This document shows positions 1,506 to 33,682 of a stretch of 33,682 nt of DNA, one piece after another. The translations under genes were made by a program, and so were the position numbers. The notes beneath the pieces are model-generated. The model had not been told where the DNA came from, searched no databases, and was given only the letters and a program-made list of their open reading frames with translations. The stretch's first letter is position 1, and each line of letters starts with the position of its first letter. Source of the stretch: a virus; UHGV virus genome UHGV-0018978. One strand, 5' to 3'.

Positions 1506-1509
1506 CTAC

Positions 1510-4263: not shown

Positions 4264-4266
4264 AAA

Positions 4267-11551: not shown

Positions 11552-11552
11552 G

Positions 11553-11909: not shown

Positions 11910-11918
11910 GCGGCCCCC

Positions 11919-13394: not shown

Positions 13395-13398
13395 AGAT

Positions 13399-15481: not shown

Positions 15482-15485
15482 GACT

Positions 15486-15503
15486 CTGCCTTTTAAAAGG
15501 CAG
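15486..15503 (-). terminator. Perfect 18-bp palindrome CTGCCTTTTAAAAGGCAG between capsid and the next gene (hairpin, function uncertain)
   Basis: Seen directly in the sequence in the 71-bp gap after the major capsid stop. No clear T-run follows, so it may be a stabiliser or attenuator rather than a terminator. Confidence 0.35.
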
Positions 15504-15552
15504 TTAAAAGGGCATTCACAGCACCTTTTAACTGCGGTTTACGGATGACGGG

Positions 15553-16458: not shown

Positions 16459-17420
16459 TAGTTATTCTCCTGTTTTGGTTTAGCGGCGAGGAACTCTTCC
16501 CCGGTAATACCCATGCTGCGGCACATCGCCAGTTCGGCGTCGGTCAGTGTCTGCGCGGGTTTATCCTTGCCCTGGCTGGGCTTGTCGTTGTTCACCAGCG
16601 GCTGTGCACCTCTGGTGTACTCCGCAAACTGTTTGCGGCCTTCTTCCGTGCGGCAGGTGGCAAGGAACATGTCACGGTTTGCCGGGGCCACTTTTCCGGC
16701 TTCGATGGCCGCATCCACAAGCGCTTCTGCTTCCTTCTCTTCCAGTTGCTGAAGGCGTTGTTCTGCGGTTTCGGCACGGTTCAGTGCAAGATTGTGGGTT
16801 TCCACCGGTACAAACTTCGTCAGGTCAGGTGTCTGTGCGCGGTTCAGCGCCACCTGTTCGTTCTCCTGAAGTTGTTTAATGGCGGCCACGGTATCGTCCA
16901 CCGTGGCGGATTCAGCCAGCCCAAGCAGGCCAGTGATTTGCACAGGTACTGTCATCGGGTTTTTCTCCGTATTCAGTGCAGGAAAATCCAGGTTAGGTTT
17001 GTTGGTCAGTCCGACGCTGGACAGGCGTGTCACCACACCCTCCGCGTCATAGAAAAACGCCGGGCTGTAATAGCGGTAACGGCGTTCGCTCAGCATCCAC
17101 CGGGCGTACTCGCTCCAGACAACACGGCCTTCAATGGTGCCGCTGTCCGTCACGCGCAGTTCTTCCACCCAGCCATACGCCGGGGCTTCATCACCGCGTT
17201 GCCCTTTAATTTCGGTGGCGTGTTCAATGTCCACCGGAATTTTGATGTCGGACGAGCGGGTGACCACCTCATGCGGATTGCGGTTAATCCACGTCCGGCC
17301 ATCGCGCCCGGTGAACTCACCCACAGGGATGAGTTCGAGCCATTCCGGCAGTTGAGCAGGTGTCAGCTCAGGGATGGGTTCTGGCAGGGAAAAACACAGC
17401 GCCAGCAGTTCCGGTTGCAT
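16458..17420 (-). CDS. Head maturation protease/scaffold protein, Mu I-like
   Basis: 320-aa ORF with an N-terminal region followed by an Ala/Glu-rich helical scaffold-like C-terminus; sits between F and the capsid gene. Confidence 0.75.
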   Translation of the reverse strand: MQPELLALCFSLPEPIPELTPAQLPEWLELIPVGEFTGRDGRTWINRNPHEVVTRSSDIKIPVDIEHATEIKGQRGDEAPAYGWVEELRVTDSGTIEGRVVWSEYARWMLSERRYRYYSPAFFYDAEGVVTRLSSVGLTNKPNLDFPALNTEKNPMTVPVQITGLLGLAESATVDDTVAAIKQLQENEQVALNRAQTPDLTKFVPVETHNLALNRAETAEQRLQQLEEKEAEALVDAAIEAGKVAPANRDMFLATCRTEEGRKQFAEYTRGAQPLVNNDKPSQGKDKPAQTLTDAELAMCRSMGITGEEFLAAKPKQENN

Positions 17421-17469
17421 GTCAGTCTCCGTCGTTTGGGGTTACCGACGGTCAGTATGCGGAAGGCAG

Positions 17470-17492
17470 AAAAAAAAGCCGGATTTACCGGC
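17470..17492 (-). terminator. Rho-independent terminator (GCCGG-TAAAT-CCGGC plus T8) between F and I
   Basis: On the minus strand a 5-bp GC stem with 5-nt loop is followed by eight T. A near-identical copy lies at 25206-25227. Confidence 0.65.
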
Positions 17493-17634
17493 TTCACTGA
17501 ATACGGGGAAATACCCCCTTCAAAACCCCTTCAAAAACGCCACAGCATCTTCAAAAACGTCAGAATGCACATTCACGCCATCAGAATAAAAAACGCGTTT
17601 CTGATGCGTTTCAGGGGGATTTACGGCGGGAGGG

Positions 17635-18399
17635 TTACTCACTGTCAAAACGGGCCTGTTTTGTCGCCAGCTGGCGCGCCAGCTCCTGCTCACGGTTTAT
17701 ACCGGGATTGTAGTTCCAGCCCGGATCAATCCCTTCCGGCACATCTTCCTCTTCGCCCGTGCGTTTGTTCACCCAGCGGACAGTTCTGATTTCCGGCGCT
17801 TCGGTGTGAATGGTGCCCTGTGCCGCCAGTTGCGCATATTCACCACGGCTGACCTGACGGATGGTGCATTTGCAGCCCCAGCCGTTAGGGGCGAAATGCG
17901 TCTGCCAGAACGGGTGGTCTACAGGCAGACACAGACGCGCCCATTTCACATGCTCCGCCCGGTGCTCGCGGGATGGCCCCAGCTCGTAAATCAGATACGG
18001 CATGGCCCGCTTTGTCCGTTGAATGCGTTCCCACTGGCCCGCCGCGCGGGCGGTGCGCATGTTGGTATCAAAAATCGTGCGGAGGCGGCGGTCGCTGCCC
18101 AGCTGTACGGTGCGGGTTTCGCCCGTCAGCGGATCATCCATCTCCTGTACGCCCCACCATCCGCGTTTTATCAGCAGCGGTTGCAGCGCCTCCCGGAACT
18201 CGCTGAACGTCTGCCCGCTTTGCAGGGCGTCTTCCACAAGGGCTTTCACATCCGACAACAAATCCAGTTGCAGCATTTTTGCCACGGTGAAGCTGTTCCG
18301 GTGTTCTTCCCGCCATACATCCCGGTAATCAAAACCGGGGCGCAGCTTCTTCGCCTTCAGCCACGCCAGCGCCTCTTTCGGGATGAGGGTTTCACGCAT
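17635..18399 (-). CDS. Head morphogenesis protein, Mu F-like
   Basis: About 254 aa. Start taken at the ATG at 18399 (GGGAG Shine-Dalgarno upstream); the listed ORF runs to 18456 and would overlap the portal gene by 65 nt. Confidence 0.75.
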   Translation of the reverse strand: MRETLIPKEALAWLKAKKLRPGFDYRDVWREEHRNSFTVAKMLQLDLLSDVKALVEDALQSGQTFSEFREALQPLLIKRGWWGVQEMDDPLTGETRTVQLGSDRRLRTIFDTNMRTARAAGQWERIQRTKRAMPYLIYELGPSREHRAEHVKWARLCLPVDHPFWQTHFAPNGWGCKCTIRQVSRGEYAQLAAQGTIHTEAPEIRTVRWVNKRTGEEEDVPEGIDPGWNYNPGINREQELARQLATKQARFDSE

Positions 18400-19963
18400 G
18401 ACCGGTATCTCCCAGCGCACGCGCCTTAAAGCACACCTCCGCCAGTTGCAGGGCAAAGTCGTCCGCGTTCAGCGTTTCCTGAAGCTCAGGCAGGCGTTTC
18501 AGAAAGTCATCAAAACTGTCGCATTCCTGCGCCAGTGTCAGCACCGGGTTCGTGAACGCCTCGCCGGTTTTCTGCCAGTCACGCAGGGCATCATCCACCA
18601 TCAGCGCCAGTTCGTCGGAGTGTTCACGGTTCAGGGCGACGCGCTCGCGGTTCATCGCCACATCACCTGACATTCCGGCAGAAACCGGATGCAGAACATC
18701 AGCCCCTTCGTCCGGTTCAGCCAGGCCGAACCGGTCCCGCAGCTCCGATTCCTGAACCCGCATCCCCCGGTCAATCAGCGGCACCAGAGCATCTGTCAGC
18801 GCCTTCAGATCTTCGGCTTCACTGATACGCAGAACAACACGGGGGTAGTGCGCCTGTGGCCCGTAGTTGGCCTCAATGTAGGGACGCACCAGATATTCAT
18901 TCAGCGTGTTAGCCAGTTGTCGCGCGTCCCAGCGCACAATGTCCATGCGCACCTGATTGTGCACGTCCGCCTGTGAACGCGAACTGCCGTTATCTGTGGT
19001 CATGGTCTGCCCCAGCACCGCCTTACTGATTTGCGCATCGCACCATTCCGCCATTTCACGGAACAGTGCGCCGCCGTTATTCCGGCTGGCGGTTTCCTGC
19101 ATCTCCAGTTGCATGGACTGCGGAATGGCACACCCGGCATCCGAGGCAATGGACGCAATCGCATCAATCAGCACGCGGATTTGCTCCTCCGTGGCGTTGG
19201 GGCCGTATTTCCCCACAGTGACCGGGATGCCGAACTTTTCCGCGAACGCCCACCAGTCGCGCACGGTATAGGATTTCAGCATGTACATCACCGCCACCAG
19301 ACGGGCAAGACCGTTACGCAACGGCAGACCGGATTTCAGGCGCGGCTGGTGAACAATGAATTTTCCCGGTGTCAGCGGTACGCCATCCACCGGTTCGTCA
19401 TCCGTCAGCAGGCGGAACTGGCGCAGCGTGGGTTTTTCGGCTTTCAGGAAACGGGGATCAACCCACTCATAATCACGGGGCACCCAGTGGTTGTTGCGGG
19501 TGTTCCACAGAATTTCACAGACAGCAACACCTTTCCCCAGCCCGTCAAGCAAATCAAACATCAGCTCGGGGATTTGCGGCGCGGCCATCAGCTCACGGAT
19601 GGCATCCGCCAGCTGCACATCGGCATCGTCATCACTGGCGGCCACCACCACCGGTTCGATACCCGCCACCGTCAGCTTGCGGGTGCGCAGTACCGAGGCG
19701 TAATGCAAATCGCGTTCTTCCATCTCTTCAGCAAGGATAAAAAAATCACGCGTGATGCCGTCAGTAGCATTGCGCAGAATGCCTGCCAGCCTGCCGGGGT
19801 TCAGCCCGGAGGCGACGCTGATACCCGGCGAGGCCGAACGCACACCGGCATGACGCGGACGGGCCTGTGCTTCGTTGAGCGCCTCTTTTTTCAGCGTGTC
19901 TTCCTCACCGGTTGCCGGGTTCAGCAGACGGCGAACGGCCCCGGCCAGTTGTTTCAGGTTCAC
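18392..19963 (-). CDS. Portal protein, Mu gp29-like
   Basis: 523-aa ORF directly downstream of the terminase large subunit. Confidence 0.8.
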   Translation of the reverse strand: MNLKQLAGAVRRLLNPATGEEDTLKKEALNEAQARPRHAGVRSASPGISVASGLNPGRLAGILRNATDGITRDFFILAEEMEERDLHYASVLRTRKLTVAGIEPVVVAASDDDADVQLADAIRELMAAPQIPELMFDLLDGLGKGVAVCEILWNTRNNHWVPRDYEWVDPRFLKAEKPTLRQFRLLTDDEPVDGVPLTPGKFIVHQPRLKSGLPLRNGLARLVAVMYMLKSYTVRDWWAFAEKFGIPVTVGKYGPNATEEQIRVLIDAIASIASDAGCAIPQSMQLEMQETASRNNGGALFREMAEWCDAQISKAVLGQTMTTDNGSSRSQADVHNQVRMDIVRWDARQLANTLNEYLVRPYIEANYGPQAHYPRVVLRISEAEDLKALTDALVPLIDRGMRVQESELRDRFGLAEPDEGADVLHPVSAGMSGDVAMNRERVALNREHSDELALMVDDALRDWQKTGEAFTNPVLTLAQECDSFDDFLKRLPELQETLNADDFALQLAEVCFKARALGDTGHA

Positions 19964-21495
19964 AGTAAACCTCCCTCATTTTTCAGGCCGCGCGTCAGCT
20001 TCATCTGGCGGCGCGCGTTGCGTTCTTCCGGTTTCGCCGGGCGGTTCAGGCGGTGCAACTCGTAACGGTGGCAGTCATCCTTGCTGGCAAGGAAGCCCAG
20101 GAAAATGGCCACAGCGGCGTCGCCGTGACGTTTGTGACCGTCGCTGCCTTTGGTTCGTGAATCATCAATGCCTGGAACGCCACGCAGCAACTGAATGGCC
20201 CCGAGGTCATTGATCACGTCTTCATGCTTCGGAAGGATCAGCTCATCATCTTCAAATGCTGCACGGAAACGGGGCATGTTTTCGCGGTAGAACGCCACGG
20301 ACAGCATCACCTGTTCCACTTCGTCGCCGTACCGCTCCGCCGCCTGTTCTGCCAGATACTGACCATTCCCCCGCGCATCCATTTTGATACCGTCACGACG
20401 GGGCAGACGATCGCAAAGCCAGAACAGCACCTGCTCCTGCTGTTTAAACGGCACATTGCCAAGCTCAACCAGGAACGGCACCTCGCGGGTGGTGTCATCG
20501 TTCACCGTCACCGGGGCCAGTACGGTCAGGTCACCCGAACGCGCAAAGTCTTCCCCCAGACAGTGGCGCAGGTTCTTCGGGAGTTTTTCCAGCTCGGGGC
20601 GCACCACTGTTTCCAGCCATTCCCGGATATCTGCCCGGCGCTGGCTTTCCGTCAGTGCGTTAAATTCCGGTGTGCCGGTAAAGCGCAACACTTTTCCGGT
20701 GCCACGGGCCGCACGCTCACGCAGTGAGCGGGGGATATACGTGCCGCCGCCGTTTTTCGGGACGCAGTAATACTCCTCCAGCGCATCTTCGCGGGTGGCG
20801 GTATTTCGCAGCAGGCCTTCTTTCCATTCCGCCTCGGCTTCCGGTGACCACACCATGCCGCGCACCTGACAGATACGCCGGTACAGCCCGTCATTGCAGG
20901 CGTCGTCCAGCGTGATGGTGTGAATGCTGTAATCTTTTTTGCCCGCGCGGCTTTCCTGAATCAGCTGGTTAAACAGGTTGTCCACGCCGTCATGGGTGGA
21001 AATAAGGCGAATTTTGCCGCCCCATGTTTTCAGCGGCAGCACCGCCTTCAGCAGCTCGTCCAGTTTTTCATGGAACGCGGCCTCGTCGATGGTGACATTC
21101 CCCTGCATCCCGCGAATGTTGCTCGGGTTGCTGGACAGTGCCTTGACCTTAAAACCGCTGGCGAAGTACACGACGAACGTCAGAATGTCCTTGTCTTCGT
21201 CGGTGATCACTTCCTCGCAGATTTCTTCCGCTGCCGCATTAAACGCTTTCGCCCACATCGCCACGGCGTCGATAAATTCGCGGGCCATCTCCTTATTCGA
21301 ACCGATATAAAAGTGATCGCGCCCGCCGTCTTCCTTCTTCAGCGATGCCGTCAGTGCCGCATCTGCCGCCTCCGCCCAGGTTAAACCGGTACGGCGGGAT
21401 TTCTCGGCGATTTTCAGGTCGGCATCATCCGCCACCCAGCGTTTCTGATACGGCAGCAGAACATCATATTCACTGAACGTGTCCATTTGTGTCAT
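19960..21495 (-). CDS. Terminase large subunit, Mu gp28-like
   Basis: 511-aa ORF; size and position before the portal gene. Confidence 0.8.
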   Translation of the reverse strand: MTQMDTFSEYDVLLPYQKRWVADDADLKIAEKSRRTGLTWAEAADAALTASLKKEDGGRDHFYIGSNKEMAREFIDAVAMWAKAFNAAAEEICEEVITDEDKDILTFVVYFASGFKVKALSSNPSNIRGMQGNVTIDEAAFHEKLDELLKAVLPLKTWGGKIRLISTHDGVDNLFNQLIQESRAGKKDYSIHTITLDDACNDGLYRRICQVRGMVWSPEAEAEWKEGLLRNTATREDALEEYYCVPKNGGGTYIPRSLRERAARGTGKVLRFTGTPEFNALTESQRRADIREWLETVVRPELEKLPKNLRHCLGEDFARSGDLTVLAPVTVNDDTTREVPFLVELGNVPFKQQEQVLFWLCDRLPRRDGIKMDARGNGQYLAEQAAERYGDEVEQVMLSVAFYRENMPRFRAAFEDDELILPKHEDVINDLGAIQLLRGVPGIDDSRTKGSDGHKRHGDAAVAIFLGFLASKDDCHRYELHRLNRPAKPEERNARRQMKLTRGLKNEGGLL

Positions 21496-22094
21496 GCGCT
21501 AATCCCCAGAATTTCACGTTTGATGGTGTCAGCCGCACCACCTGACAGACCGCCCGTTCTGACCAGTTCTTCGGTTTTCTCTGCCATCTCCTGCGCAAAC
21601 GCATCGCGGATCGCTTTCTCGCGTTTATGGCTGGTCATGGCTGCCGCCTCCAGACGCTGGGCAACCAGCGCCAGTTGCCCCAGCGCTTTCGGTGCAACTG
21701 GCTTGTCGTCTTCTGCCATCGACATGGACGTTTCAAAGGCCAGCGTTTTTACAAACTCCATCAGCAGCTTGCCGACGTCAGACGTCGGCGCAGAACCCAG
21801 CTTTGCCGCCCAGACTTCGGCCATTTCGCGGGAGGCGCGGATTTTGGCCCCGACTTTTTCCATGCGGATGGCATAGCGGTTTAAGCCCGTCCGGCTTAAC
21901 TGCATCTCTTCCGGCAGGTTATGTTCGTCAATCAGGGCGTTGATGGCTTCGCGGATTTCTTCCTGCGTGTGCCGCTTTTCCCGCAGCATCTGATGCAACT
22001 GCTCCCGGATGCTGTCCGGGAGTAAATCCACTTTGGAAAGACGGCCACGGGTGGGGCGTTGTTCATTTTCCATGTGTGCCCTCCTGTTGCTCAC
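21492..22094 (-). CDS. Terminase small subunit-like protein, Mu gp27-like
   Basis: 200-aa ORF immediately upstream of, and overlapping by 4 bp, the large terminase gene. Confidence 0.6.
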   Translation of the reverse strand: MSNRRAHMENEQRPTRGRLSKVDLLPDSIREQLHQMLREKRHTQEEIREAINALIDEHNLPEEMQLSRTGLNRYAIRMEKVGAKIRASREMAEVWAAKLGSAPTSDVGKLLMEFVKTLAFETSMSMAEDDKPVAPKALGQLALVAQRLEAAAMTSHKREKAIRDAFAQEMAEKTEELVRTGGLSGGAADTIKREILGISA

Positions 22095-22192
22095 TACGCT
22101 GTAAACTTTCGTATGCAGATTTCAGTGCGCCGCTCTGGATTTCCCGCCATGTCAGATTGTGCGCCAGACGGCGAAGTTCATCACGGGACGCT

Positions 22193-22510
22193 CTACTTAT
22201 CGGATTCTTTTTTCGGTTCACGACGGCCCCCGTCTTCAGTACCCGGTGTTTTCAGACCGGCGTATATTTCTTCGCGAACGGACCGGATATCCTTACCCAG
22301 CAGCTTCCACAGCCGCGCACATGCCGGTGATGAACGCAGAAAACGTTTCATTGGCGCGTCCGGTGAATCCTGGTTCCAGCGCTTTCCGGTCTGTTGCTCA
22401 TATGCACTGGCAATCGCTTTTTGTTCGATATCTGCCAGCACAAGACAATGTGCCAGTTGCCGTACGACGTCCCGTTCTCCGCGACTTAACGGCTTCAGTT
22501 TTCGGGTCAT
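22193..22510 (-). CDS. Small conserved phage protein, basic C-terminus
   Basis: 105-aa ORF between the lysis cassette and the terminase genes. Confidence 0.45.
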   Translation of the reverse strand: MTRKLKPLSRGERDVVRQLAHCLVLADIEQKAIASAYEQQTGKRWNQDSPDAPMKRFLRSSPACARLWKLLGKDIRSVREEIYAGLKTPGTEDGGRREPKKESDK

Positions 22511-22512
22511 GC

Positions 22513-22806
22513 TCAGTCTCTCGCACGGGGTTTTTTAACGCCCGGCACACCGGACAGGCCGTTTGCCACATCCTCGCCGCTGCCGGTGATTTCAGCCACG
22601 TAACAGCCGCCCACATCAGACAGACGAACCAGCCCCTGCTCGCGCAGCCATGCAAGCTGGGTGCGCACTACATCACGGGATACCTTATGACCGTAGGCCT
22701 GAAGGCAGGTCTGCAACACGGATTCATTCGCGCTGTCGCCACAGTCCAGCAGGGAACGCAGCAACACAAGACGACGGTCTTCAGTGAGGATCTCTTTCAT
22801 CGCCAT
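22513..22806 (-). CDS. Small putative winged-helix DNA-binding protein
   Basis: 97-aa ORF tightly coupled to its neighbours; the segment VVRTQLAWLREQGLV looks like a winged-helix recognition region. Confidence 0.45.
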   Translation of the reverse strand: MAMKEILTEDRRLVLLRSLLDCGDSANESVLQTCLQAYGHKVSRDVVRTQLAWLREQGLVRLSDVGGCYVAEITGSGEDVANGLSGVPGVKKPRARD

Positions 22807-23111
22807 TAATTTTTTTCCTTTAACTCGTTCTCTAATAACAAATCACTGATGCGGGATACCTGGCGGATGGATGGCCCCAGTTCCCTGATTTCACCCCGCA
22901 GATTGCTGATATCCAGTTGCAGGCGGTGAAATTCATTGCGGTCAGGTAACTGATTCACCAGACCTTCCATCACCGATATGCGGGAACGCAGCGAATCAAA
23001 CTCTTCGCGTTTGACGTAGGTCTTCGCCAGAATCAACTGGAGAAAGTTGATCCCTGTCATCAGCAATGCCCACAGAATGGGCCAGTTGGCTCTGATCATT
23101 TCCCAGGACAC
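22806..23111 (-). CDS. Membrane-anchored coiled-coil protein (spanin- or releasin-like lysis accessory protein)
   Basis: 101 aa; N-terminal hydrophobic segment WPILWALLMTGINFLQLILA followed by a heptad-like coiled coil. Confidence 0.5.
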   Translation of the reverse strand: MSWEMIRANWPILWALLMTGINFLQLILAKTYVKREEFDSLRSRISVMEGLVNQLPDRNEFHRLQLDISNLRGEIRELGPSIRQVSRISDLLLENELKEKN

Positions 23112-23323
23112 GTTTTCCTCCTGCGTTCCCGCATCTGCTGACAGTCAATACAGGTCACCACATCCGGCAGCGCCGCAAGGCGCTGTGCCGGAATAGCGTT
23201 CCCGCAGTCATTGCAGAAGCCACGACTGTGGGGCGCTTCTTTTGTCCGCGTCTGCCAGGCTTTAACGACGTTCTGACGCTCGTTAAAAACCACTTCACTG
23301 ATGCGGTCGATTTCGTCGGTCAT
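23096..23323 (-). CDS. TraR/DksA-family C4 zinc-finger protein
   Basis: 75 aa with CNDCGNAIP...CIDCQ, the CxxC-(17)-CxxC spacing of the TraR/DksA zinc finger. Confidence 0.65.
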   Translation of the reverse strand: MTDEIDRISEVVFNERQNVVKAWQTRTKEAPHSRGFCNDCGNAIPAQRLAALPDVVTCIDCQQMRERRRKTCPGK

Positions 23324-23943
23324 TTCGGCCCCGCAGACATTTTGTGACGACTTGATTTGCTGTAACGGGCAAAGCCGTCAAGGGTTCTTACGCCGAGATA
23401 GCCCAGCGCCGGGGTAAGCAACATCAGCGTGATATCCCAGTCCGGTGACGGCATATGCAGCGTGATACCTCTGGCACCGGCAATGGCTCCGGCAATCTGG
23501 CCGCAGGAGAGCAACAGCACATAGGCCAGACTGCTGTAACAGGAAAGGCGGGCCAGTAGCGGGCGCGTCTGGCGCACATAGCTGTCCGTGGCGTTGTCAC
23601 CATTGCGGATGGTTTCCTGCTGTTCGTGGTGTGCGGCCTGCTGGTCAGCCAGCACCAGCTTCTGCCGTTCCACCTCCAGCTGTTGCAGCTGAACTTTCAG
23701 GGTTTCCATCTGCATCAGTTGCTCCGGTGACAGCATCACCAGTTTTTGTTCCAGAATGCGTTGCTGTTCAGCCACCGGCAGGCTTTCCCGGACACTTTCC
23801 ACCATACCGGCCACCGAGTCAGCGGCGGCAGATGTGCTGCCACCAAACCAGCGTCCGACTGAACGAATCAGCCCCGGCCCGGCTTTCAGCAGAACAGAGG
23901 CGATGCCTGAAAGGGTTAACGGATCCACGGAAAACCTCCACAC
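23320..23943 (-). CDS. Putative holin/lysis membrane protein
   Basis: 207 aa with hydrophobic segments at both ends and a central coiled-coil/Gln-rich region; lies in the lysis cassette. Confidence 0.5.
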   Translation of the reverse strand: MWRFSVDPLTLSGIASVLLKAGPGLIRSVGRWFGGSTSAAADSVAGMVESVRESLPVAEQQRILEQKLVMLSPEQLMQMETLKVQLQQLEVERQKLVLADQQAAHHEQQETIRNGDNATDSYVRQTRPLLARLSCYSSLAYVLLLSCGQIAGAIAGARGITLHMPSPDWDITLMLLTPALGYLGVRTLDGFARYSKSSRHKMSAGPK

Positions 23944-24341
23944 AGATAACGCTGAAGACAGAGCAGGCCACCGCAGCCGCTACCACACAGCCAGAATACT
24001 GGTTGAGATAATGTTCCCATCAGCAGAATGCCGCAGACACAGCAGAAATATCCCAGCGCCCAGACCACCCATGACCACACGATGATGTGGCGGCCAAAAG
24101 CCCGGTAACGGACTTCGGGCAGCAGACGATATGGCACATTTCCCAGGCTGGCGCTGTATGAAAACAGTACAACGCAGGAAAAGCCCAGCAGCATCAGCAC
24201 GAACGATCGCCAGCCACATAACATGCTTATGATGAACATGCAGAGCGTCAGCCCGGCCAGGGGCCACGGCGTTCTCATCAGTCGGGAACAAATCAGCCAG
24301 TCACACAGTTTTAAAATTTTGTTCATTACCTTTTTCCACAT
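23916..24341 (-). CDS. Putative multi-pass membrane protein (holin candidate)
   Basis: 141-aa ORF with 3-4 hydrophobic segments rich in Cys/Trp. The unusual composition means it could be a spurious frame. Confidence 0.3.
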   Translation of the reverse strand: MWKKVMNKILKLCDWLICSRLMRTPWPLAGLTLCMFIISMLCGWRSFVLMLLGFSCVVLFSYSASLGNVPYRLLPEVRYRAFGRHIIVWSWVVWALGYFCCVCGILLMGTLSQPVFWLCGSGCGGLLCLQRYLCGGFPWIR

Positions 24342-24552
24342 TGAATTTTTCCCTGTACTTCTGGCACTGCCAGAAAATGTCCCGTGTATCTACGGAGTTC
24401 CAGCCACGCATGTAGTAGCTGGCGTGTGTGCCGTCATGGCCGGTATAATCCAGCGGTTTCGGGGGCGGACCTCCGGCCATGCGGTGCAGAACCTCCTGAC
24501 GCAGGCGGTCACGTCGCCCGGCTTTCAGTGAGGCGTTCCAGCCTTTGCCCAT
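24301..24552 (-). CDS. Small hypothetical protein coupled to the endolysin gene
   Basis: 83-aa ORF whose start lies next to the endolysin stop; no recognisable motif. Confidence 0.35.
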   Translation of the reverse strand: MGKGWNASLKAGRRDRLRQEVLHRMAGGPPPKPLDYTGHDGTHASYYMRGWNSVDTRDIFWQCQKYREKFNVEKGNEQNFKTV

Positions 24553-24553
24553 A

Positions 24554-25150
24554 TCACCCCCGCGTGGCGGACATGATGCCCAGAGGGGTATCGATGATTT
24601 CCAGACAGGCGTCGGTCAGTTCTTCCATGCGGTTAAACCAGCCGTTCAGGTATTTGCCACGAGCGGGTTTTGATTTGATGAGGCCCGCATAAAAGCGGCA
24701 ACGGCGAACAATGCAGCGGGACAGCAGCCAGTCCGGGGTGGACAGGCTCACAGCCTTGCGGGTACGCGGGCCGATGATGCCATCGGCAGACACATCAGCG
24801 GCTTCCTGTAAAAACTTGACGGCTTGCTCCACGCCATGCTGAACAGCCGCATCAAACACAAAGAGCGCCACACCATCAGGCCACTGATCACACCCGGCAA
24901 GCAGCCAGTAATCGCGCCAGTAAATCTGCGCAACCTGTTCGCGGGTCAAATCCTTAATGCGGGTATCTGGTTTGCCGTCGCCGTTGACATCGGTTTTGCC
25001 GTCAATCACACCGTCGCGGCGGTCAGAAATGCCGTATTTTGTTTCGCCGCCGCTGTCAGTGGGGTCATTGACATAGCCGCCTTCGATATCAGGACGCAGA
25101 ATAAAATTCAGCGCATGTTCAAAGGCCGGGGAGAATTTTTGATTTTCCAT
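24554..25150 (-). CDS. Endolysin, GH108-type lysozyme with a peptidoglycan-binding domain
   Basis: 198 aa. The N-terminal EGGYVNDPTDSGGETKYGIS motif is characteristic of GH108 enzymes. No N-terminal transmembrane/SAR segment. Confidence 0.75.
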   Translation of the reverse strand: MENQKFSPAFEHALNFILRPDIEGGYVNDPTDSGGETKYGISDRRDGVIDGKTDVNGDGKPDTRIKDLTREQVAQIYWRDYWLLAGCDQWPDGVALFVFDAAVQHGVEQAVKFLQEAADVSADGIIGPRTRKAVSLSTPDWLLSRCIVRRCRFYAGLIKSKPARGKYLNGWFNRMEELTDACLEIIDTPLGIMSATRG

Positions 25151-25205
25151 AAAAGCACCTGTGAAGCAGATTTAAACGTGGTCTGCTTCATGGTGCCGGA
25201 GGCAT

Positions 25206-25227
25206 AAAAAAAGCCGGATTTACCGGC
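25206..25227 (-). terminator. Rho-independent terminator (GCCGG-TAAAT-CCGGC plus T7) downstream of the secreted-protein gene
   Basis: Same stem-loop as at 17470-17492, with a T-run on the minus strand, about 25 bp after the stop of the 25252-25749 gene. Confidence 0.65.
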
Positions 25228-25251
25228 TTCATTGAATATAAGGTTATTGGT

Positions 25252-25749
25252 TCAGTTAACTTTACGGGCAGAACACGTAGTCTTCATTACTGAACGTTCA
25301 ATTTTTATCTTCCAGCCATTTACTGTTTTTTCGACAGGATCATCTTCAGCTTGCTTTAAATTTTTAACTTGCATGAAATTCAGCGGGGCTGGGGTATCAT
25401 CGTCCCATGATGTCGGGCGAACATAATCAGGGACAACAAAAGGCTCAAAAACAGTTTCACATAAAGCAGACGTCATTTGAGCGAACTCGTCGCTATCGGG
25501 GCGAACCGGTCCTGTAACATACTGCATTTTTATGTTGATTTCGTTATCTCGCACAGACGTCTTTAAATCCTGATATACACCTAAGTTAAATCCTTTAAAC
25601 TCAGCAATGGCAGCGTCACCTTTACCGTACCAGTCGGTATAGTCAACGGATGTTTTTTTCTGAAAAACATCTTTGACTTTTTGCTGGAATGTATCCGCCG
25701 CTTGTACAGTAGTAACAGTTAGTAAAAGAATAAGGGGAAGATATTTCAT
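25252..25749 (-). CDS. Secreted/periplasmic protein of unknown function with an N-terminal signal peptide (candidate moron)
   Basis: 165 aa starting MKYLPLILLLTVTTVQA-ADT, a typical Sec signal. The gene is AT-rich relative to the flanking phage genes and has its own terminator. Confidence 0.6.
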   Translation of the reverse strand: MKYLPLILLLTVTTVQAADTFQQKVKDVFQKKTSVDYTDWYGKGDAAIAEFKGFNLGVYQDLKTSVRDNEINIKMQYVTGPVRPDSDEFAQMTSALCETVFEPFVVPDYVRPTSWDDDTPAPLNFMQVKNLKQAEDDPVEKTVNGWKIKIERSVMKTTCSARKVN

Positions 25750-26147
25750 TGTTCGTCCTTAAATAGTTGCATTTGATACTTTCCACGCTCCAGTCGGCGC
25801 ATTCTTTTGATGGCCTGATATACCGTTTTGTATGTCACTTTGTAACGCTGCACCAGCTCCGCTACGTTTTTCCCATCAAAATCACGCCAGATGCGCATGT
25901 CTCTGATAAGATTTTCCAGTATTTTCCCTTTCGGAACATATACCTGAATCCCACCGATATGATTGCAAATCGCCACTACCAGCTCAAGGGAGTGGGCAGG
26001 GTTAACTCCAAGCCTTATCAGCTCTTGTCGCAACAGAGCATTCAGCTCAGCCAGTAAAGATGGAAATCCCGATTTTTCCTGAACATCATCAAAATATTCA
26101 AGGATACTGTCGTCCTGATAATCACCAAATAAATCCTGCTCTTTCAT
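25746..26147 (-). CDS. mor: Mor/C-family transcriptional activator
   Basis: 133 aa with an acidic N-terminus and a C-terminal helix-turn-helix (TYKTVYQAIKRMRRL); sits directly after gemA, as mor does in Mu. Whether it is the Mor or the C orthologue cannot be settled from sequence alone. Confidence 0.7.
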   Translation of the reverse strand: MKEQDLFGDYQDDSILEYFDDVQEKSGFPSLLAELNALLRQELIRLGVNPAHSLELVVAICNHIGGIQVYVPKGKILENLIRDMRIWRDFDGKNVAELVQRYKVTYKTVYQAIKRMRRLERGKYQMQLFKDEQ

Positions 26148-26695
26148 AGAACTATTCTCCCGCTGTTTCTGGCGCGGGCATACGCACTGGTCAGTGCATC
26201 ATATCCGCGCAGTTCCCGCCCGGTTTCGCTCACAGGTAAAGGCACGCCATGTCGGGTAAAGGCTTCCCGAATGCAGCGCATATGCCACTGCTTGAGCGTT
26301 TCGAGCACAACCTGCAACGATTCCCCATGACACCAGGCCAGCGTGGAAACACCCTGACCACCATTACGTCTGGCCGTCAGGCGTGCAACGTATTTGTCCA
26401 GCGCGGCGTCGCTGCCATCAGAGACAAAACCATCAAAGGACATCTGCTGCCAGATTTTATAAATCTTCTCGCGTGGTGTGACATACCCCTTAAAGCGACG
26501 TCGGGGATGTTTTTTCTGCTTCTTAAACCCGCGCTCTTTCATGGCATCGAGCACCTGTTCCAGTTGTGCAACGGACAGCTCGCGGCAACTGGTTTTGCCC
26601 GTGCACTGCACCAGAAAGGCTCGGTAAGTGTCATCGTCGAGGTGCAACTCCCGGCGGGCAACATGAATTAATTTAATCAGGGATGTGCGACTCAT
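26144..26695 (-). CDS. gemA: GemA-like regulatory protein (Mu gp16 family)
   Basis: 183-aa ORF immediately upstream of the Mor-like gene, matching the Mu gemA-mor arrangement. Confidence 0.65.
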   Translation of the reverse strand: MSRTSLIKLIHVARRELHLDDDTYRAFLVQCTGKTSCRELSVAQLEQVLDAMKERGFKKQKKHPRRRFKGYVTPREKIYKIWQQMSFDGFVSDGSDAALDKYVARLTARRNGGQGVSTLAWCHGESLQVVLETLKQWHMRCIREAFTRHGVPLPVSETGRELRGYDALTSAYARARNSGRIVL

Positions 26696-27062
26696 TTTGC
26701 CCCATCTCCTTAATGCAGTGTTTTTCGACCCATGTCACACGAGCAGAATTCAGGTGGCATCTGTCATGTAGGCATTCATCATGGTAGTGCACGTTATCTA
26801 CATTAAATGGCAGGGATTCATCCAGCCCACTCGCGACAAAATCCGCATGTAATTGTTCTAGCGCAGCTTCGCTGTCTGCCCCGATTGATTCAAAATAGTC
26901 ATAAACATTGGCGCATAATCCGACTCCACGAATAAACCCTTCCCCTTCCGTTTCTTGCGCTCCGTTTTTTAACCACTGGTTATAGGCGACATAAAAATCA
27001 TAAAGATGTTTTCTGATGCTGGCGGATGTGGATTTAATTTCATTTTTCTCTGCGTTATTCAT
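26673..27062 (-). CDS. Hypothetical early-region protein
   Basis: 129-aa acidic ORF in the semi-essential early region; no motif recognised. Confidence 0.45.
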   Translation of the reverse strand: MNNAEKNEIKSTSASIRKHLYDFYVAYNQWLKNGAQETEGEGFIRGVGLCANVYDYFESIGADSEAALEQLHADFVASGLDESLPFNVDNVHYHDECLHDRCHLNSARVTWVEKHCIKEMGQNESHIPD

Positions 27063-27237
27063 TTCTTAATACCTCTTCGCAATAAAAGATTTCGCTTGGA
27101 TAACGTTTTTGTATGCGCTCCATCACCTGCATACATGCCTGCTCTGTGGGCCAGATTTTTTCTGTTACCGGAATGGCATCACAGGCATCATTTCCACAGG
27201 TGCCAACCAGCAGGACAAAGCCAATTAACTTAATCAT
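27055..27237 (-). CDS. Small signal-peptide/lipoprotein-like protein
   Basis: Internal start MIKLIGFVLLVGTCGND... gives a 61-aa protein with a hydrophobic leader ending near Cys; ATG at 27237 lies 2 nt after the upstream stop. The listed 92-aa ORF is probably over-extended. Confidence 0.4.
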   Translation of the reverse strand: MIKLIGFVLLVGTCGNDACDAIPVTEKIWPTEQACMQVMERIQKRYPSEIFYCEEVLRNE

Positions 27238-27772
27238 GCTCGCTGATTTCCTGTGTTGCCGCCGGAACCGGTGAATAATCAAGAATGAGATAGCGCAGGA
27301 CGTGGTCGGTGATATTCCAGCCACTGGAGCCACAAATAAAACGACCCAGCCGGATATCGATATAAGCCATCACAAAACGGGGCATTCCCTGTTTGCACAT
27401 CTCGTCATCCACTTCAGCAACGATGTGAACCGACTCGCAAGTCAGTACACCTGTCGCAAATTCTTTTGCCAGTGCCGGAATGGCATTGCCTTCCAGCCAG
27501 GGCAAAGAGCGGCGGAACGCGCACCATTGAGCATCATCAATATCGGGGTGCTCCGTTGTTGCGTTTCGTCTTACTGGCGGCGTTGGACGAGGGCGCTGAA
27601 CGTCATAAAAGCCATTACATTCAGTCAGCAATCCGGCATCAACCGCATCGCGCAGGAAATACACCATTGAGGAAGGTGGCATCTTCATTTTTTCAGCCAG
27701 AACGCCACAAGTCAGACGGCCGTAAGCGCGTAATAATGTACTGACACCGTTCAGAATTTTTGCATCAATCAC
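27230..27772 (-). CDS. Hypothetical early-region protein with a possible N-terminal HTH
   Basis: 180-aa ORF tightly packed with its neighbours. Confidence 0.45.
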   Translation of the reverse strand: MIDAKILNGVSTLLRAYGRLTCGVLAEKMKMPPSSMVYFLRDAVDAGLLTECNGFYDVQRPRPTPPVRRNATTEHPDIDDAQWCAFRRSLPWLEGNAIPALAKEFATGVLTCESVHIVAEVDDEMCKQGMPRFVMAYIDIRLGRFICGSSGWNITDHVLRYLILDYSPVPAATQEISEHD

Positions 27773-27775
27773 CGG

Positions 27776-28381
27776 TTATTCCTCCGTCAGCGCCACAAAT
27801 TCAGAATGTTTAATGCGCTGGCATTCGGCGGGAACCGGTCCCTTAACCTCACCGCCAAGAAGGCGTACTTTAAACAAAATGCCGAATCCATCACGGTCGT
27901 GGTGCATTTCCCACACTGATTTGATGTCAAACAGGTCAACTTCGGCATCTACATTAAGTTCATTACACAGCCAGCCCGGAAAATCCGGGTGTTTTTTGAG
28001 CTGATTTTCACAGTCCCGGATGAGCTTCCCGTACTCACGGCCTGCCGGTATTGTCATATCCGGCATTGCGCCCCATAACTGAATATCACCAATGAAAAGT
28101 GTCTTTGATTTAGCCTCCCATCCTTCCGGTGGTAAACGGTTAAACCAGACACGCGTAACCCTCTCAGACCCTTTGTCACCAGACAAAGACACACCGGTTG
28201 CATTCACTGATTGCTGTAATAACGCAATAACCTCACCACGCTTAACAGAAACGTCTTTCAGCCAGCGAATCGTATAAGCGTTAGCGGCTGTGTCACTCAG
28301 TTTAAAATAAGCACATGCTGTCATTTTCATTCTCTCCGGTTCTGATTCAGGCGCGAGTAGTCCCCTGACGCATCGCGCCAT
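27776..28381 (-). CDS. Hypothetical early-region protein
   Basis: 201-aa ORF (start may be the internal MKMTACAYF) directly downstream of gam. Confidence 0.45.
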   Translation of the reverse strand: MARCVRGLLAPESEPERMKMTACAYFKLSDTAANAYTIRWLKDVSVKRGEVIALLQQSVNATGVSLSGDKGSERVTRVWFNRLPPEGWEAKSKTLFIGDIQLWGAMPDMTIPAGREYGKLIRDCENQLKKHPDFPGWLCNELNVDAEVDLFDIKSVWEMHHDRDGFGILFKVRLLGGEVKGPVPAECQRIKHSEFVALTEE

Positions 28382-28421
28382 AATTAAACGAATGTGAATT
28401 AATTAAATATTAATGGTGGTA

Positions 28422-28946
28422 TTAAATACCGGCTTCCTGTTCAAACGGAATAATGGAAAAATCTTCAATGCCCGATTTAACTGTAATTCCGGCGACACCT
28501 GCGACCGCTTTCGGTTCCAGTAAAATCGCTTCCTTGTTGATTTCCTGTTTCGTGCGAATAAAACGTTGCAGGCCAAGACGCTCCAGCGTTTCCATCACCG
28601 CATCCACACCGCGAATACTTACCGATGGTGGGCGCTGACGCCATGATACATCGCCGGTTACCAGGTTTGCTGTCTTCACCTTGCCGCCGTTCGTCAGTTC
28701 GTCACGGTTCGCTTCACACCATCCCTGAACACCTTTTGAAAGGGTTTCGATACTGGTTTTAAGCGGCGCAATCTGTGAGGCGTATTTCTCCGTAATCTCA
28801 GCAATAGCGTCATTCATTTCTGTTTCAAGTCGTGCCGCTTCGCGTTGCAGGTCCCCAATCCGGCGGATATCACATACCACGGCATCGCGGGATTGCGGAA
28901 CATAAGCCGCTGCGGCGCTCTTGATTCGTTTTGCTGGTTTAGCCAT
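28422..28946 (-). CDS. gam: Host-nuclease inhibitor Gam (binds DNA ends)
   Basis: 174 aa, MAKPAKRIKSAAAAYVPQSRDAV...GIEDFSIIPFEQEAGI; length and sequence agree closely with my recollection of Mu Gam. Confidence 0.85.
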   Translation of the reverse strand: MAKPAKRIKSAAAAYVPQSRDAVVCDIRRIGDLQREAARLETEMNDAIAEITEKYASQIAPLKTSIETLSKGVQGWCEANRDELTNGGKVKTANLVTGDVSWRQRPPSVSIRGVDAVMETLERLGLQRFIRTKQEINKEAILLEPKAVAGVAGITVKSGIEDFSIIPFEQEAGI

Positions 28947-28966
28947 ATAAATAAAGCTCCTGTTAA

Positions 28967-29266
28967 TTAATATTCGCTGTATACAATGCTGGATACAGCA
29001 CGATTGCTTAATTCCATCTTTTGGGCTATCACATGAATAGCCAGCCCTTCTTTATAAAGTTCACGACACAAATATTTGTCGTGCTCACTGACCCGGTATG
29101 CACACAACGATATTCCGTGCCTTCTGGCATGTGCCTGTAGGGCGGTTGGGGCAACGTTCAGTTTTTTCGCCATTTCTTCGACGGTCATTTTCCCGACACT
29201 GGCTTCGATAAATTCCCGGTCTTCGCGTGACCAGCGCTTACGATTACACTTCATGTCAGCCACCAT
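28967..29266 (-). CDS. Small putative DNA-binding protein (HTH)
   Basis: 99 aa with HTH-like segments (TVEEMAKKLNVAPTALQAHARRHGIS). Confidence 0.45.
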   Translation of the reverse strand: MVADMKCNRKRWSREDREFIEASVGKMTVEEMAKKLNVAPTALQAHARRHGISLCAYRVSEHDKYLCRELYKEGLAIHVIAQKMELSNRAVSSIVYSEY

Positions 29267-29686
29267 TCAGTACAGCAGAGGCTCGCGCAGTGATGCCGGA
29301 ATATGCCGCAGCGATAACTGAACCGCTTTCAGGGCAAGGGAAGAATACGTCCCCTGCGTCCAGCCTTTCGCCATTTGCCGGTAATCGCGCCAGATGTTCT
29401 GCCACTGCTCCCGTGCGTCCGGGTCTGACGCGCTGATGTATTCGCGGTCCATGACGTATTCCCATAAATCCACATTGAAGGCGTTGCCAAACGTAATGGC
29501 GCGGAATACCGCCTCTCCGCAATAACGCGCACAAATGCTGTAATGGTCAAATGCAATCAGGTAAGTCTTTTCGCCATACCCCTCAACTTCGCGCGCGCAA
29601 ATAAATTCGCGCAAGTCTCCACCATTGTTATTACGCATTTTAATTCGAATTAATGCCTGGATTTCGTTTCTGATTCTGGCGTTCAT
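29267..29686 (-). CDS. Hypothetical early-region protein
   Basis: 139-aa ORF, contiguous with neighbours. Confidence 0.45.
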   Translation of the reverse strand: MNARIRNEIQALIRIKMRNNNGGDLREFICAREVEGYGEKTYLIAFDHYSICARYCGEAVFRAITFGNAFNVDLWEYVMDREYISASDPDAREQWQNIWRDYRQMAKGWTQGTYSSLALKAVQLSLRHIPASLREPLLY

Positions 29687-29700
29687 TGTCAGCGTTCCTT

Positions 29701-29964
29701 TCAGTGACGTGTTCCTTCAACTGTCGCTTCTGTGACACTGCCACCCGAAATGACGCCATCATTTTTCAGTATTTCAATGGCCTCATGGGCTGACTCGCGA
29801 ACGATATCTCGGCTTTTTTCCAGAACCAGTAACGCTATCGCACCAGCAAGCGTGTATTCATCACCATCCAGTTCTGCACTGTGGTCCACGTTAACATTGG
29901 TGCGTAAATGCTGCCCTTTAACTTCAGATGTCACATTTTTGATTTCGATAATGACTTTTGCCAT
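29701..29964 (-). CDS. Hypothetical early-region protein
   Basis: 87-aa ORF. Confidence 0.4.
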   Translation of the reverse strand: MAKVIIEIKNVTSEVKGQHLRTNVNVDHSAELDGDEYTLAGAIALLVLEKSRDIVRESAHEAIEILKNDGVISGGSVTEATVEGTRH

Positions 29965-29975
29965 TTTGTTTCTCC

Positions 29976-30230
29976 TTATTGATTCTGAATAATTGCGCTG
30001 ACCTTTACCTTCGCGCCTTCTACCTGTTTAAAGAAAACACCACTGCACCACGGACAACATGTGAAGGAGTCCCATACTTCATTTTCGGGGGAACTTTGCG
30101 TCATAAGCTGTTCACCACATCCCGGGCATTTATATGTCGTCAAAGGCACTCCGTGGCGCTGACAATGTTTAACCCACTCAATATATTTTCCAGACCTGAT
30201 ACTCATCGTTATCTCCAGATAATCTGACAA
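29976..30230 (-). CDS. Small zinc-ribbon protein
   Basis: 84 aa with CPGCG...CCPWC, a CxxC...CxxC zinc-ribbon pattern. Confidence 0.5.
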
Positions 30231-30436
30231 CCATTAAGACGGGCCGTCCATACTGAACGGGCAACCCCGGATTTATGCTCCATAATTCTGACCGCGCTTT
30301 TTACCAGTTCCACTGGTGGGTAAGTGATTTCAAGAATCGGACGCGCCACACCGAGATATGATTCATTTACATAACTCCCGCGCGCCTGTAACCAATGCTG
30401 CGCATCTTTTGCCATTTTGATATTACGAGACATCAT
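30209..30436 (-). CDS. kil: Kil-like host cell division inhibitor
   Basis: 75-aa ORF immediately downstream of B, the position and size of Mu kil. Confidence 0.55.
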
Positions 30437-31392
30437 GATTTAGTATCCTCTTTCACACCCAGCAGCATCGAAACATCAACGTCCTGGTCTAACTCTTTGT
30501 AAGCCTCTCGCAGATAATCCTCGTTAACACGTTCGCCTTTACCGAAGGCATTCATAACAGCAAGGCGCAGAGTTTGATTCATAATGCGGAGTGCACCGGG
30601 CGTTTGTGCAATCTGCTGTAATAGTTCCCGTTCATTTTTCCCGGTAATCTGCCAGGCATCCGCAATAGCGTTTACATCGTCTTCTTTGGTTTTATTAATT
30701 GCAGTGCGCTTTGCAATACGGGAAAACAGACGGGCAAACTCAATTGTTCTGTCGCCATTACTGGTCATATTTGAATAAACACGGTGATTCCCCATCAGAA
30801 CAAGACCAATACAGGCTGATTCCTGTAACAGACGGAGTTCTTCCAGCGCCTCGGTGTCGAGGTGATCAGCTTCGTCAACAATGACCAGCCCCTGTGTTCC
30901 CTTTAGGCGACGACGCAGATTGCGGGAAAGCGGCCCTTTGCGACATGGTGCATTATTCATTCCCAATTCTTCGGCAAGTTCGGTCAGACATTCCAGTGTA
31001 CTGGCACGGGATGGCGCAATGGTGATCATCCAGACATTATTATTAGTGCGACAAAATTCACGGGCCGCTTCGCTTTTACCCACGCCAGGATTACCGCAGA
31101 TAACAGCAATAGTTCCGGTCAGATTAGCAAAACGCATACTTGTCCAGATTTGACGGGCTGTTGTAGTTTCCACAAAACGCGGGGGTTCCGGCAGTTCTTC
31201 AGCGCGGTGATAGTTTTCCAGCCAGCGTTGCAGTGTGCTCCCGATTGCTTCCATGTTGCCGTTATATTTATCATTCACAAAACCACTGACTGTGCTCAGG
31301 GCTACACCTGATTCACTGGCGATGCGTGTCAGCGTGGTTTCTCCATTGTCTACAAGCGTGCGCAGTCCTGCGCGAATATCGGAAATATTCAT
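30433..31392 (-). CDS. B: Transposition ATPase / target DNA activator B (MuB)
   Basis: 319 aa, [14 protein letters not shown]... with Walker [11 protein letters not shown] and Walker [11 protein letters not shown]; closely matches my recollection of Mu B. Confidence 0.9.
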
Positions 31393-31430
31393 CTTAATAA
31401 CCTCGTAATCAAATTTTATTTAAACGTTAA

Positions 31431-33403
31431 TTAAATGGCTTTTTTGCGTCTTTTCTGTTCCAGAATATCCAGTGACTGATTCAGATATTCATCACGAGAG
31501 GGTTCGTATTTATCATCGGGGGTGCGATATTTAACCTGCACTGTGTTACCTACAGGCCGGAAAATACCAACAACCCTTGATTCTGGTGCTGCTGGTTCGG
31601 CTATCTGCGGCAGTAATTCAGCAACTTCCAGTGCGTCCATTTGTTTCTGTGCCTTAATCGCTGCTTTCGTCGCAGATTTCAGTTGTTTCTGGCGTCGGCG
31701 ATACTCACGACCTGCCGCAGCATCATTAAATGCAACTGGTGCCAGACATTCCGCTTCACAGATAAACCGACCGTCCAGGGTGTAGCAATAAACAGTGCTG
31801 TGTAGCTGCTGCGGATCAAACCTGACCACGACTTTTTTCACTCCGGCATTCATTAATGCCATGTTGTAATAAACGTTTTTCGCGCCTTTAAGAGAGCCGC
31901 CAACTTTAAGCGTAAACTCGCCTTTGCGTGAAACGTTCACCGCCTCAGCAGGCAGTAACAACATCCGTTTTTGTTCTTCGGTTGGCTTACGTACAATCGT
32001 TCTGGCGTATTCACGCTCAAAAACATCATCAAACGAAAGTTTGCCCCCGCACATTTCTGTTTCACGGCCTGTTCTGGCATTGAACATCGCCACACCTTCG
32101 GCAAGTGTTTTCAGAAACAGTTCTGCATCAATAGCCCGGTCGCCATAGTTATCAGGTTTTGCCTGCGGATTTGGCCCCGTATATGCGCCAGCCAGCGCCG
32201 GATGCTTATCAACATATTCCTCAAGTCCCCCTACACCAAAAGCGCGTTCAACTGGTTTTGCCTGCCCCCAGCCCTTACCAGCAACAACACTTGTCCAGTG
32301 CATGGTGGCCCCCATCAGTAAAAACAGTCCCTTTGGATCATCCTCTTTCACTTTAAAGCGGTAGCGATTGGGCGCGCCCCCCGTCAGCCATTTATTCGCT
32401 GCGCCACGGGTGTTATCAATAGTGATATGAAAATCCTCCGGGATGCCGTAGCGTGTCACCACATCCATGAACGAGAGGCGAATTGAATCGATGTTCTCGC
32501 TTACATCGCAACGCCAGCCCAGAATTTTTCGGGTTTTCACATCCTGCCAGAACCATGTTTTCGGGCGGATCACATCACCGTTAAACCAGCGTACAAAGAC
32601 GTTATGGAGATAACCGTCGCCGTTGATCCACTGCATAGCGTCCAGGTGTTCCACAGTTCGCTGCTGTGCCGGTATCAGATGCATCAGTGCATGTTCACCT
32701 TCACGGCAGGCAACAACCATTGCCTCGTCCAGTTGCTGAATCCGGCGAAAGGCCGTGGCACGGGAGGGAATATTCCAGCCATGCTCACGTGCAGCCAGTT
32801 CCAGACGCTCATAACATTTGCGGAAGGCGGGCTTTTCCGGTCGCAGATAATCTGCAATCAGAAACTGCCAGGCATCCTCGTCAAATTCACTTTTGTGAAC
32901 ATTGCGACGAGATGCACCACGTCCATCAACAAGTGCAGCCGCCCAGTCAGGCTTCGCAAACTTCTGTACCGCACAGTGGATGCGCTGACCTGGTAATGCC
33001 CTGCAACGGTCGCAAAAGCCGTTTTTGTTGAAATCCCCTGGTTCAGCATTTCGTCTGCGGCCTGAACTGCAGGCAACCATTTTTCAGCAAGTCTGCGCTG
33101 GGAATCGCTGGCGTTATCCCATTTGCTCCACAGTGCCTCACGATCGTAATCGTGCGCTTCCAGCGTGGGGCGGGCGATTTCAAAATACCCCTGGCTTGTT
33201 TCAATACCTCCTTGTTGCAATAAAATTTCAGCACGTAATGCAACAGGAAATGATTTGATATTGAATTCAAATGATACGCCTTTAGTACCTGTAACTTGCC
33301 TAAACACCCAGCCTTCTCTTTGTGCCTTACGTGTAATGTTAGTTGCTTGCTTTGGCAAACCAGCAAAACCAAGCAATTCTTTCGCTGTATACCACTCTTT
33401 CAT
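31431..33403 (-). pseudogene. A: DDE transposase A (MuA-like, D108-type N-terminus), split by a frameshift near 32968
   Basis: The N-terminal 181-aa ORF (32858-33403) and the 549-aa ORF (31431-33080) are in different frames. Conserved sequence runs ...[11 protein letters not shown] in frame 1, then continues [19 protein letters not shown]... in frame 2, with about 223 nt of overlap. The 549-aa part includes the catalytic core and C-terminus. Confidence 0.7.
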
Positions 33404-33410
33404 AGCGCAC

Positions 33411-33632
33411 CTAGTATCGAGATGGCCAGATATCCTGCGGTGTCATTCCCAATGCATCTGCAATGATTTTTTCCGCTTTCGGGTATCTCTTATCTAAAGC
33501 ATTTTTTAATGTTGAAGACGAAAGATGATTCGATCTTCCCAATTCGGCCAGTGACATATTGCGTTTTCGTAACTCAGCAACGATGTCAGCCCGATGCCAG
33601 TCTTGGCGGTTAGCTCTTTTATTCATATGCAT
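33411..33632 (-). CDS. ner: Ner-like DNA-binding regulator (D108-type)
   Basis: [73 protein letters not shown] belongs to the Ner/Nlp family. Start chosen at 33632 to give 73 aa; the ORF extends to 33656. Confidence 0.8.
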
Positions 33633-33660
33633 TTCATGTAATCCTTTCAGATTCACCCGT

Positions 33661-33682
33661 GAGCTACTCTACAAAGTAGCTC
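33661..33682. promoter_or_regulatory. Candidate operator: inverted repeat GAGCTACT-N6-AGTAGCTC upstream of ner
   Basis: Perfect 8-bp inverted repeat at the window edge, about 30 bp upstream of ner, where the early promoter and operators lie in Mu-type phages. May be cut off by the window end. Confidence 0.4.

Follow-up and report, generated by a model that had tools for sequence, protein, structure and literature searches.

Phage Mu and its relatives D108 and SfMu carry the transposase gene A in the early operon, in the order ner-A-B-kil, and encode it as a single protein of 662-663 aa with the domains PF02316, PF09039, PF02914 and PF09299 (DDE/RNase H-like). Without MuA, as in A amber mutants or mini-Mu elements lacking A, integration and replicative transposition are abolished, the prophage is stable, and the function can be supplied in trans. 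[quoted passage not shown] In the transpososome, I-beta-gamma is the part of each MuA subunit that contacts the L and R ends (PMC3562280).

The DNA analysed here (the window, 33,682 nt) is a whole metagenome contig made up entirely of phage DNA; it runs from the last 21 nt of mom to a point just upstream of ner and lacks c, attL and attR. Its minus-strand early operon keeps the order ner (33632..33411), A, B (31392..30433), and the location of A between ner and B fits a MuA-type gene, with the ends of the element outside the window. The ner start, ATG 33632, is the start position of the 73-aa PF13693 gene in relatives and also of ner in D108 and SfMu. The domains of A and its position are those of the phages above; its sequence is split between two reading frames, and both ORFs and their 223-nt overlap (32858-33080) are exactly as the original prediction had described them. 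The features are as follows.

33411..33632, minus strand: ner, 73 aa, adjoining A upstream in the early operon
33403..32858, minus strand: first A ORF, 181 aa, beginning at the normal A start
33080..31431, minus strand: second A ORF, 549 aa, in the -1 frame relative to the upstream ORF
32969..33403, minus strand: native N-terminal part of A, codons 1-145, comprising I-alpha and about two thirds of I-beta and carrying L144V
32968..32974, minus strand: lesion, T>G at 32974 and the junction of a 16-nt deletion
32858..32968, minus strand: out-of-frame tail of the first ORF, 36 codons and a stop
31431..32969, minus strand: native-frame rest of A from V151 to the stop, comprising the end of I-beta, I-gamma, the DDE core and domain III
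32970..33080, minus strand: non-native leader (MVACSS...) of the 549-aa ORF, 37 codons
30433..31392, minus strand: B (MuB AAA+ ATPase), 319 aa, intact, next gene downstream (PF13401 and PF09077)

Four Mu transposase Pfam models match strongly, spread over the two ORFs: HTH_Tnp_Mu_1 on the first (residues 8-141), and HTH_Tnp_Mu_2, DDE_2 and Mu-transpos_C on the second. In an intact relative, all four lie on one protein. Residues 1-145 of the first ORF align to Mu A 1-146, and residues 38-549 of the 549-aa ORF align to Mu A 152-663 with 96.9% identity; this architecture and identity bear out the assignment of the gene to the MuA type, and the Mu A sequence with which the original prediction had compared the gene was correct. 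The catalytic triad is kept (D155, D222 and E278 of the 549-aa ORF, corresponding to D269, D336 and E392 of Mu). At the nucleotide level, the window A gene is 92.0% identical to that of D108 and 93.4% identical to that of SfMu, gap columns included. The 549-aa ORF turns native at VQKFAKPDW; its MVACSS... leader, which the original prediction had held not to be conserved, is the -1 frame of conserved A sequence. The native-frame remainder of A (31431..32969) is without a start codon of its own.

We aligned the gene with A of Mu, D108, SfMu and one E. coli prophage, and with that of ten E. coli prophages that are near-identical, and a single 16-nt gap was placed after gene nucleotide 433. The lesion can be read directly from the letters and does not depend on statistics. 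Intact relatives read CCACTTTGCGGGACAAGTATTACCAGGTACAG and the window reads CCACTGTGCGGTACAG; that is, relatives have CCACT-TTGCGGGACAAGTATTACCAG-GTACAG where the window has CCACT-GTGCG-GTACAG, so that the five bases GTGCG replace the 21 bases TTGCGGGACAAGTATTACCAG. The only microhomology flanking the deletion is GG, by which placement of the junction is ambiguous between 32971 and 32968. Three nucleotides from the deletion, at window 32974, a T>G substitution gives L144V. Within I-beta, the subdomain that binds the ends, the deletion takes out residues D146-Q150 and one base more; as 16 is not divisible by 3, the frame beyond it is -1. There is no homopolymer at the lesion, the closest A5 runs being at 33084 and 33026. 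The original prediction of a short indel, not a multiple of 3 and away from any homopolymer, thus took precise form as a 16-nt deletion at 32971/32968, and the alignment to the Mu and D108 A genes that it had proposed defines the indel as this deletion together with T>G.

The only notable repeat near the lesion is a 10-nt direct repeat, ATTACCAGGT, with copies 36 nt apart. Slippage between these copies was rejected as a source, since it would yield a 36-nt in-frame deletion and not the observed 16 nt. We also searched the window for a second copy of CCACTGTGCGGTACAGA and found none at up to three mismatches, and a templated or ectopic origin of the new sequence was rejected. By our own arithmetic, four substitutions in about 13 kb give a chance of about 0.003 that one falls within 5 nt of the junction; the two changes thus belong to one event, mutational or artefactual.

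By homology to solved structures, the subdomains of the intact relative are I-alpha (1-75), I-beta (76-173), I-gamma (173-246) and the catalytic core (247-573), which puts the frame break at residues 145/151 within I-beta. As written, A has neither a continuous ORF nor an intact I-beta, and, judged from its sequence, the window gene is a disrupted allele of the MuA family rather than a working member of it. The 16-bp deletion, with T>G 3 nt upstream, would shift the frame in the subdomain that binds the Mu ends. Translation from the A start would then give a 181-aa product consisting of I-alpha, two thirds of I-beta and 36 junk residues, and everything beyond, from the remainder of I-beta through I-gamma and the DDE core to domain III, which interacts with MuB and ClpX, would not be made. 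A function would probably be lost: without MuA no transpososome would form, and there would be no integration elsewhere, no transpositional replication and no progeny, which would leave the prophage fixed at its site. About 1.4 kb of untranslated message ahead of B may, by polarity, reduce expression of B and kil.

A split transposase could in principle be a functional one, made by -1 programmed frameshifting, by re-initiation, as in the OrfA/OrfAB arrangement of IS3 and IS1, or as two cooperating polypeptides. The -1 downstream frame and the 223-nt overlap do resemble IS3-type geometry, and the break separates two Pfam envelopes; judged by the solved structures, however, it lies inside I-beta (76-173) and not between domains. 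An X XXY YYZ slippery heptamer is absent in frame throughout the first ORF and no Shine-Dalgarno motif precedes ATG 33080, on which grounds programmed frameshifting and re-initiation were rejected. The first native in-frame start, ATG 32720, would lose I-alpha, I-beta and most of I-gamma. Taken together, the missing motif at 33080, the late ATG 32720 and the missing heptamer leave the catalytic part without a usable start. Nor do any of the relatives share the split: A is continuous across the 83 complete genomes (60 listed matches), in 10 draft loci and in 44 viral and metagenome contigs. We consider a working two-ORF transposase extremely unlikely, and the two ORFs should be annotated as a single A pseudogene rather than as two genes.

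The gene downstream gave a set of near relatives with which to compare. A protein identical to the window MuB is indexed in 47 blocks of the gene-position collection, 24 contigs of which were read. At 319 aa this MuB is longer than the product of the 939-nt (312-aa) B gene of Mu, D108 and SfMu, the difference lying at the B 3' end (window 30433-30460); the longer form is common to all ten closest relatives, and its stop overlaps the kil start by 4 nt. Ten draft-genome and Logan loci with the identical MuB (L005-L014, for example GCA_005400345.1 and GCA_037979785.1) all have a 662-aa A with the full 21-nt stretch, unlike the frameshifted allele of the window. Relatives whose A ORF is unbroken, which might have been thought to overturn the split, thus exist, yet they define the lesion and do not refute it.

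Every relative examined is intact at the site, and the lesion is private to the window contig. Among 83 complete E. coli genomes, all 60 matches listed span 367 nt for a 351-nt query, which marks these matches as intact. The intact site also has matches in 30 viral contigs and 14 metagenome contigs. The junction, searched in exact and degenerate forms, had no matches in the genome, viral or metagenome contig collections (genome_contigs, viral_contigs and metagenome_contigs). In a collection of 15 billion proteins, the 181-aa product occurs on one contig only, the window itself, and an exact look-up of the 181-aa and 549-aa ORF products in the gene-position index found neither. These observations leave virtually no room for the idea that the lesion is a natural allelic variant, from a lineage whose normal state is a shorter region here or a Val at residue 144. 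The window itself would be its sole support; the T and all 16 nt are present in 30/30 viral and 14/14 metagenome contigs (44/44), the change in length is not divisible by 3, and an intact allele carrying G at 32974 had no matches, so that T>G was rejected as a standing polymorphism.

Other E. coli assemblies likewise contain truncated or rearranged A genes. P0019, on an NCBI contig of 18,337 nt, is a 269-aa N-terminal part of A that is native up to ...RPEKPA, and its residues beyond that point match a plus-strand (antisense) ORF of the window A region (31924..32148), a sequence pattern that suggests an internal inversion of A in that assembly. P0013 is a 294-aa C-terminal part on a 1.79-Mb contig, and strain HBUT-L has an A pseudogene. 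These lesions differ in kind and position, and none of the three shares the window junction.

Two other contigs, L016 and L015, belong to the same lineage as the window. The 429-aa product that begins at the internal ATG 32720 led us to L016 (ENA ERZ28614601, scaffold_2484, 34,981 nt); when it was looked up again with a short flank, L016 was the only carrier, and the other contig on record with this product is in all likelihood the window's own. L016 has two variants in common with the window, 31616T, which is the SNP of the lineage, and 32886A, which L009-L011 carry as well. It differs from the window by three private SNPs (29221, 25570 and 25560), the last two 10 nt apart, which hints at strain-level heterogeneity of the phage between or within samples. 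The other contig, L015, is an independent MEGAHIT contig. The left flank of L016 (54 nt, L016 1-54) is E. coli adiC and the right flank of L015 (L015 21204-21848) is the adjoining adiC sequence; the two contigs show TG...CA ends and a 5-bp target duplication, TTGGT, in adiC. The placement in adiC concerns L015 21204-21848, L016 1-54 and L063, and two different ENA assemblies. These flanks and the duplication identify the lineage as an adiC::Mu-like lysogen of E. coli that is present in several samples. The gene encodes the arginine/agmatine antiporter, so that the prophage interrupts a gene of acid resistance. The L016 flank, at 54 nt, is as long as k-1 when k is 55, suggesting that the assembly graph of that sample branches there into adiC without the prophage. 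No intact-A contig of the window sublineage turned up among the 44 viral and metagenome loci, none of which has 31616T or the adiC junction.

At the site of the lesion, L016 reads ...GCATCCACT[N x71]GTACAGAAG... and its 71-N scaffold gap covers the aberrant stretch of the window exactly. The left edge of the gap is the last base common to the window and intact alleles, and the right edge is 1 nt into the shared sequence. Comparing the length of the gap with k-mer size gave nothing. Assemblers are not known to collapse a 16-nt length difference as a bulge. A sample that held both alleles could therefore have left an unresolved two-allele bubble at which the path stopped and was bridged by scaffolding, and such a bubble would give gap edges like those of L016; the deletion would then be real and polymorphic, and may have coexisted with the intact allele in the sampled population. 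The same coincidence can be turned the other way. The sole other assembly of the lineage failed at this exact spot, which fits equally well a shared problem followed by wrong gap closure: the DNA would have an intact A, GTGCG would have been misjoined in place of the true 21 bases, and the prophage would then probably be fully functional. That the aberrant 5 nt coincide with the gap marks the site as hard to assemble in this lineage, and both private differences of the window, T>G and the deletion, fall within the gap. The chance of about 0.003 for a substitution so near the junction is a point for this reading as well. We find such an assembly artefact possible, if on balance doubtful. A break in a 35-kb scaffold exactly at the variant boundaries is better explained by two coexisting alleles, and no repetitive sequence explains the break, the 10-nt direct repeat being the only one nearby.

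The state of the remaining sequence bears on this choice. With the 21-nt stretch restored, the window A protein is 100% identical to the 662-aa A of L009, L010, L011 and L013, and against the ten E. coli prophages the window A gene has 2-3 substitutions and the one gap. Over 13,250 nt (window 33682..20433), the comparison with L008, L012 and L014 gave 4 substitutions, the same gap and no other indels. Positions 1..21069 are 100.000% identical to L015. Against the E. coli prophages L066 and L067, window 15966..1 shows one length difference, which is in frame. It lies in the tape-measure gene at window 9458-9649, where the window has a net gain of 54 nt over L066 and L067, which fits 615 versus 597 aa. 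The segment 20433-15966 was compared with L015 only, a contig of the same lineage as the window. In those parts of the 33.7-kb window that were compared, we found nothing else that breaks a reading frame, in line with the original prediction that the downstream genes are intact. A generally error-prone contig is contradicted by the comparisons with L015, L008, L012, L014, L066 and L067, and, since the contig is otherwise clean against independent assemblies, random indel error is not a feature of this sequence. The ten relatives sit at ten different host chromosomal sites, which indicates that the lineage was recently mobile. Given this mobility and an A gene that is near-identical and undecayed, the lesion is either very young or not real, and both alternatives that the original prediction had offered, recent inactivation or a sequence error, are still live.

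Outside the early region, the window departs from the described phages. We found no gin invertase and no inverted G segment in window 600-4263 (L015 16807-21090). The interval holds two pairs of tail-fibre and assembly genes in one orientation, the first of 269 aa and 176 aa (Caudo_TAP) and the second of 470 aa (phage_tail_N) and 188 aa (DUF4376), followed by com and mom, unlike the S-U-U'-S'-gin arrangement of D108 and SfMu. Late-region gene sizes also differ from those of D108 (F, 254 versus 439 aa; N, 424 versus 495 aa). With a late region unlike that of D108 and an early region like those of D108 and SfMu, the phage is a mosaic. Between c and ner, the window ends (33657-33682; L016 1040-1069) within an inverted repeat of 12 bp that is perfect, CCGTGAGCTACT-TTGTAG-AGTAGCTCACGG; this intergenic region is probably the operator region, and the repeat may be the reason that assembly stopped there.

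Weighing these observations, we favour, at a probability of about 60%, a real and recent compound mutation of A (a 16-bp deletion and T>G) that would render an E. coli Mu-family prophage transposition-null. The lesion in the contig, its restriction to this contig, the domains that it hits and the intact state of the rest of A and of the compared phage sequence are seen directly. We infer that the deletion is present in the DNA rather than in the assembly alone: the loss of 16 nt where neither a homopolymer nor a long repeat is near is atypical of base-calling error, and the contig is error-free elsewhere when set against independent assemblies. The G at 32974 is found in neither true flank, and thus could not have come from overlapping them, and 0/44 other contigs carry it. 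What counts against a real deletion, and for a misassembly, is that the allele lies on one contig only, with no junction match elsewhere, and that A is not decayed any further. Errors in local consensus or gap closing, too, are marked by a substitution as close to a deletion as 3 nt.

If the mutation of A is real, the Mu-like prophage would be immobile, without transposition, replication or particles, and its insertion in adiC would be frozen. As no other gene shows damage yet, it would also be a very early snapshot of prophage decay. We consider it very unlikely that such a deletion is not only real but kept as useful, locking the prophage in adiC and removing the cost of induction; the gap in the sister scaffold would then reflect a null allele living alongside the wild type in a single gut population of E. 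coli. The stand-alone 181-aa protein, with its enhancer/operator-binding subdomain I-alpha, could in that case, by analogy with the OrfA regulators of insertion sequences, exert trans-dominant inhibition on Mu-type transposases, whether incoming or co-resident. For catalogues of viruses from metagenomes, the sole lesion in an otherwise perfect 33.7-kb contig coincides with the gap of a sister scaffold, and calls of 'defective' phages therefore need confirmation at the level of reads. The split A gene itself opens no new biological question.

The lesion can finally be set against known systems. Mu, D108, SfMu and the intact relatives make A as one protein, and the window gene differs from theirs by the 16 nt missing from I-beta and the resulting split of the frame. 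A-defective Mu phages are laboratory alleles with measured phenotypes, whereas the window allele is natural, or only apparent, and is known from sequence. Elements of the IS3 and IS1 type have an upstream DNA-binding ORF followed by an overlapping catalytic ORF in the -1 frame, as the window does; unlike them, the window has no slippery site, its split is not conserved, and the break falls inside a folded subdomain. If real, the lesion is an ordinary inactivating event of a known kind and not a new mechanism or arrangement.
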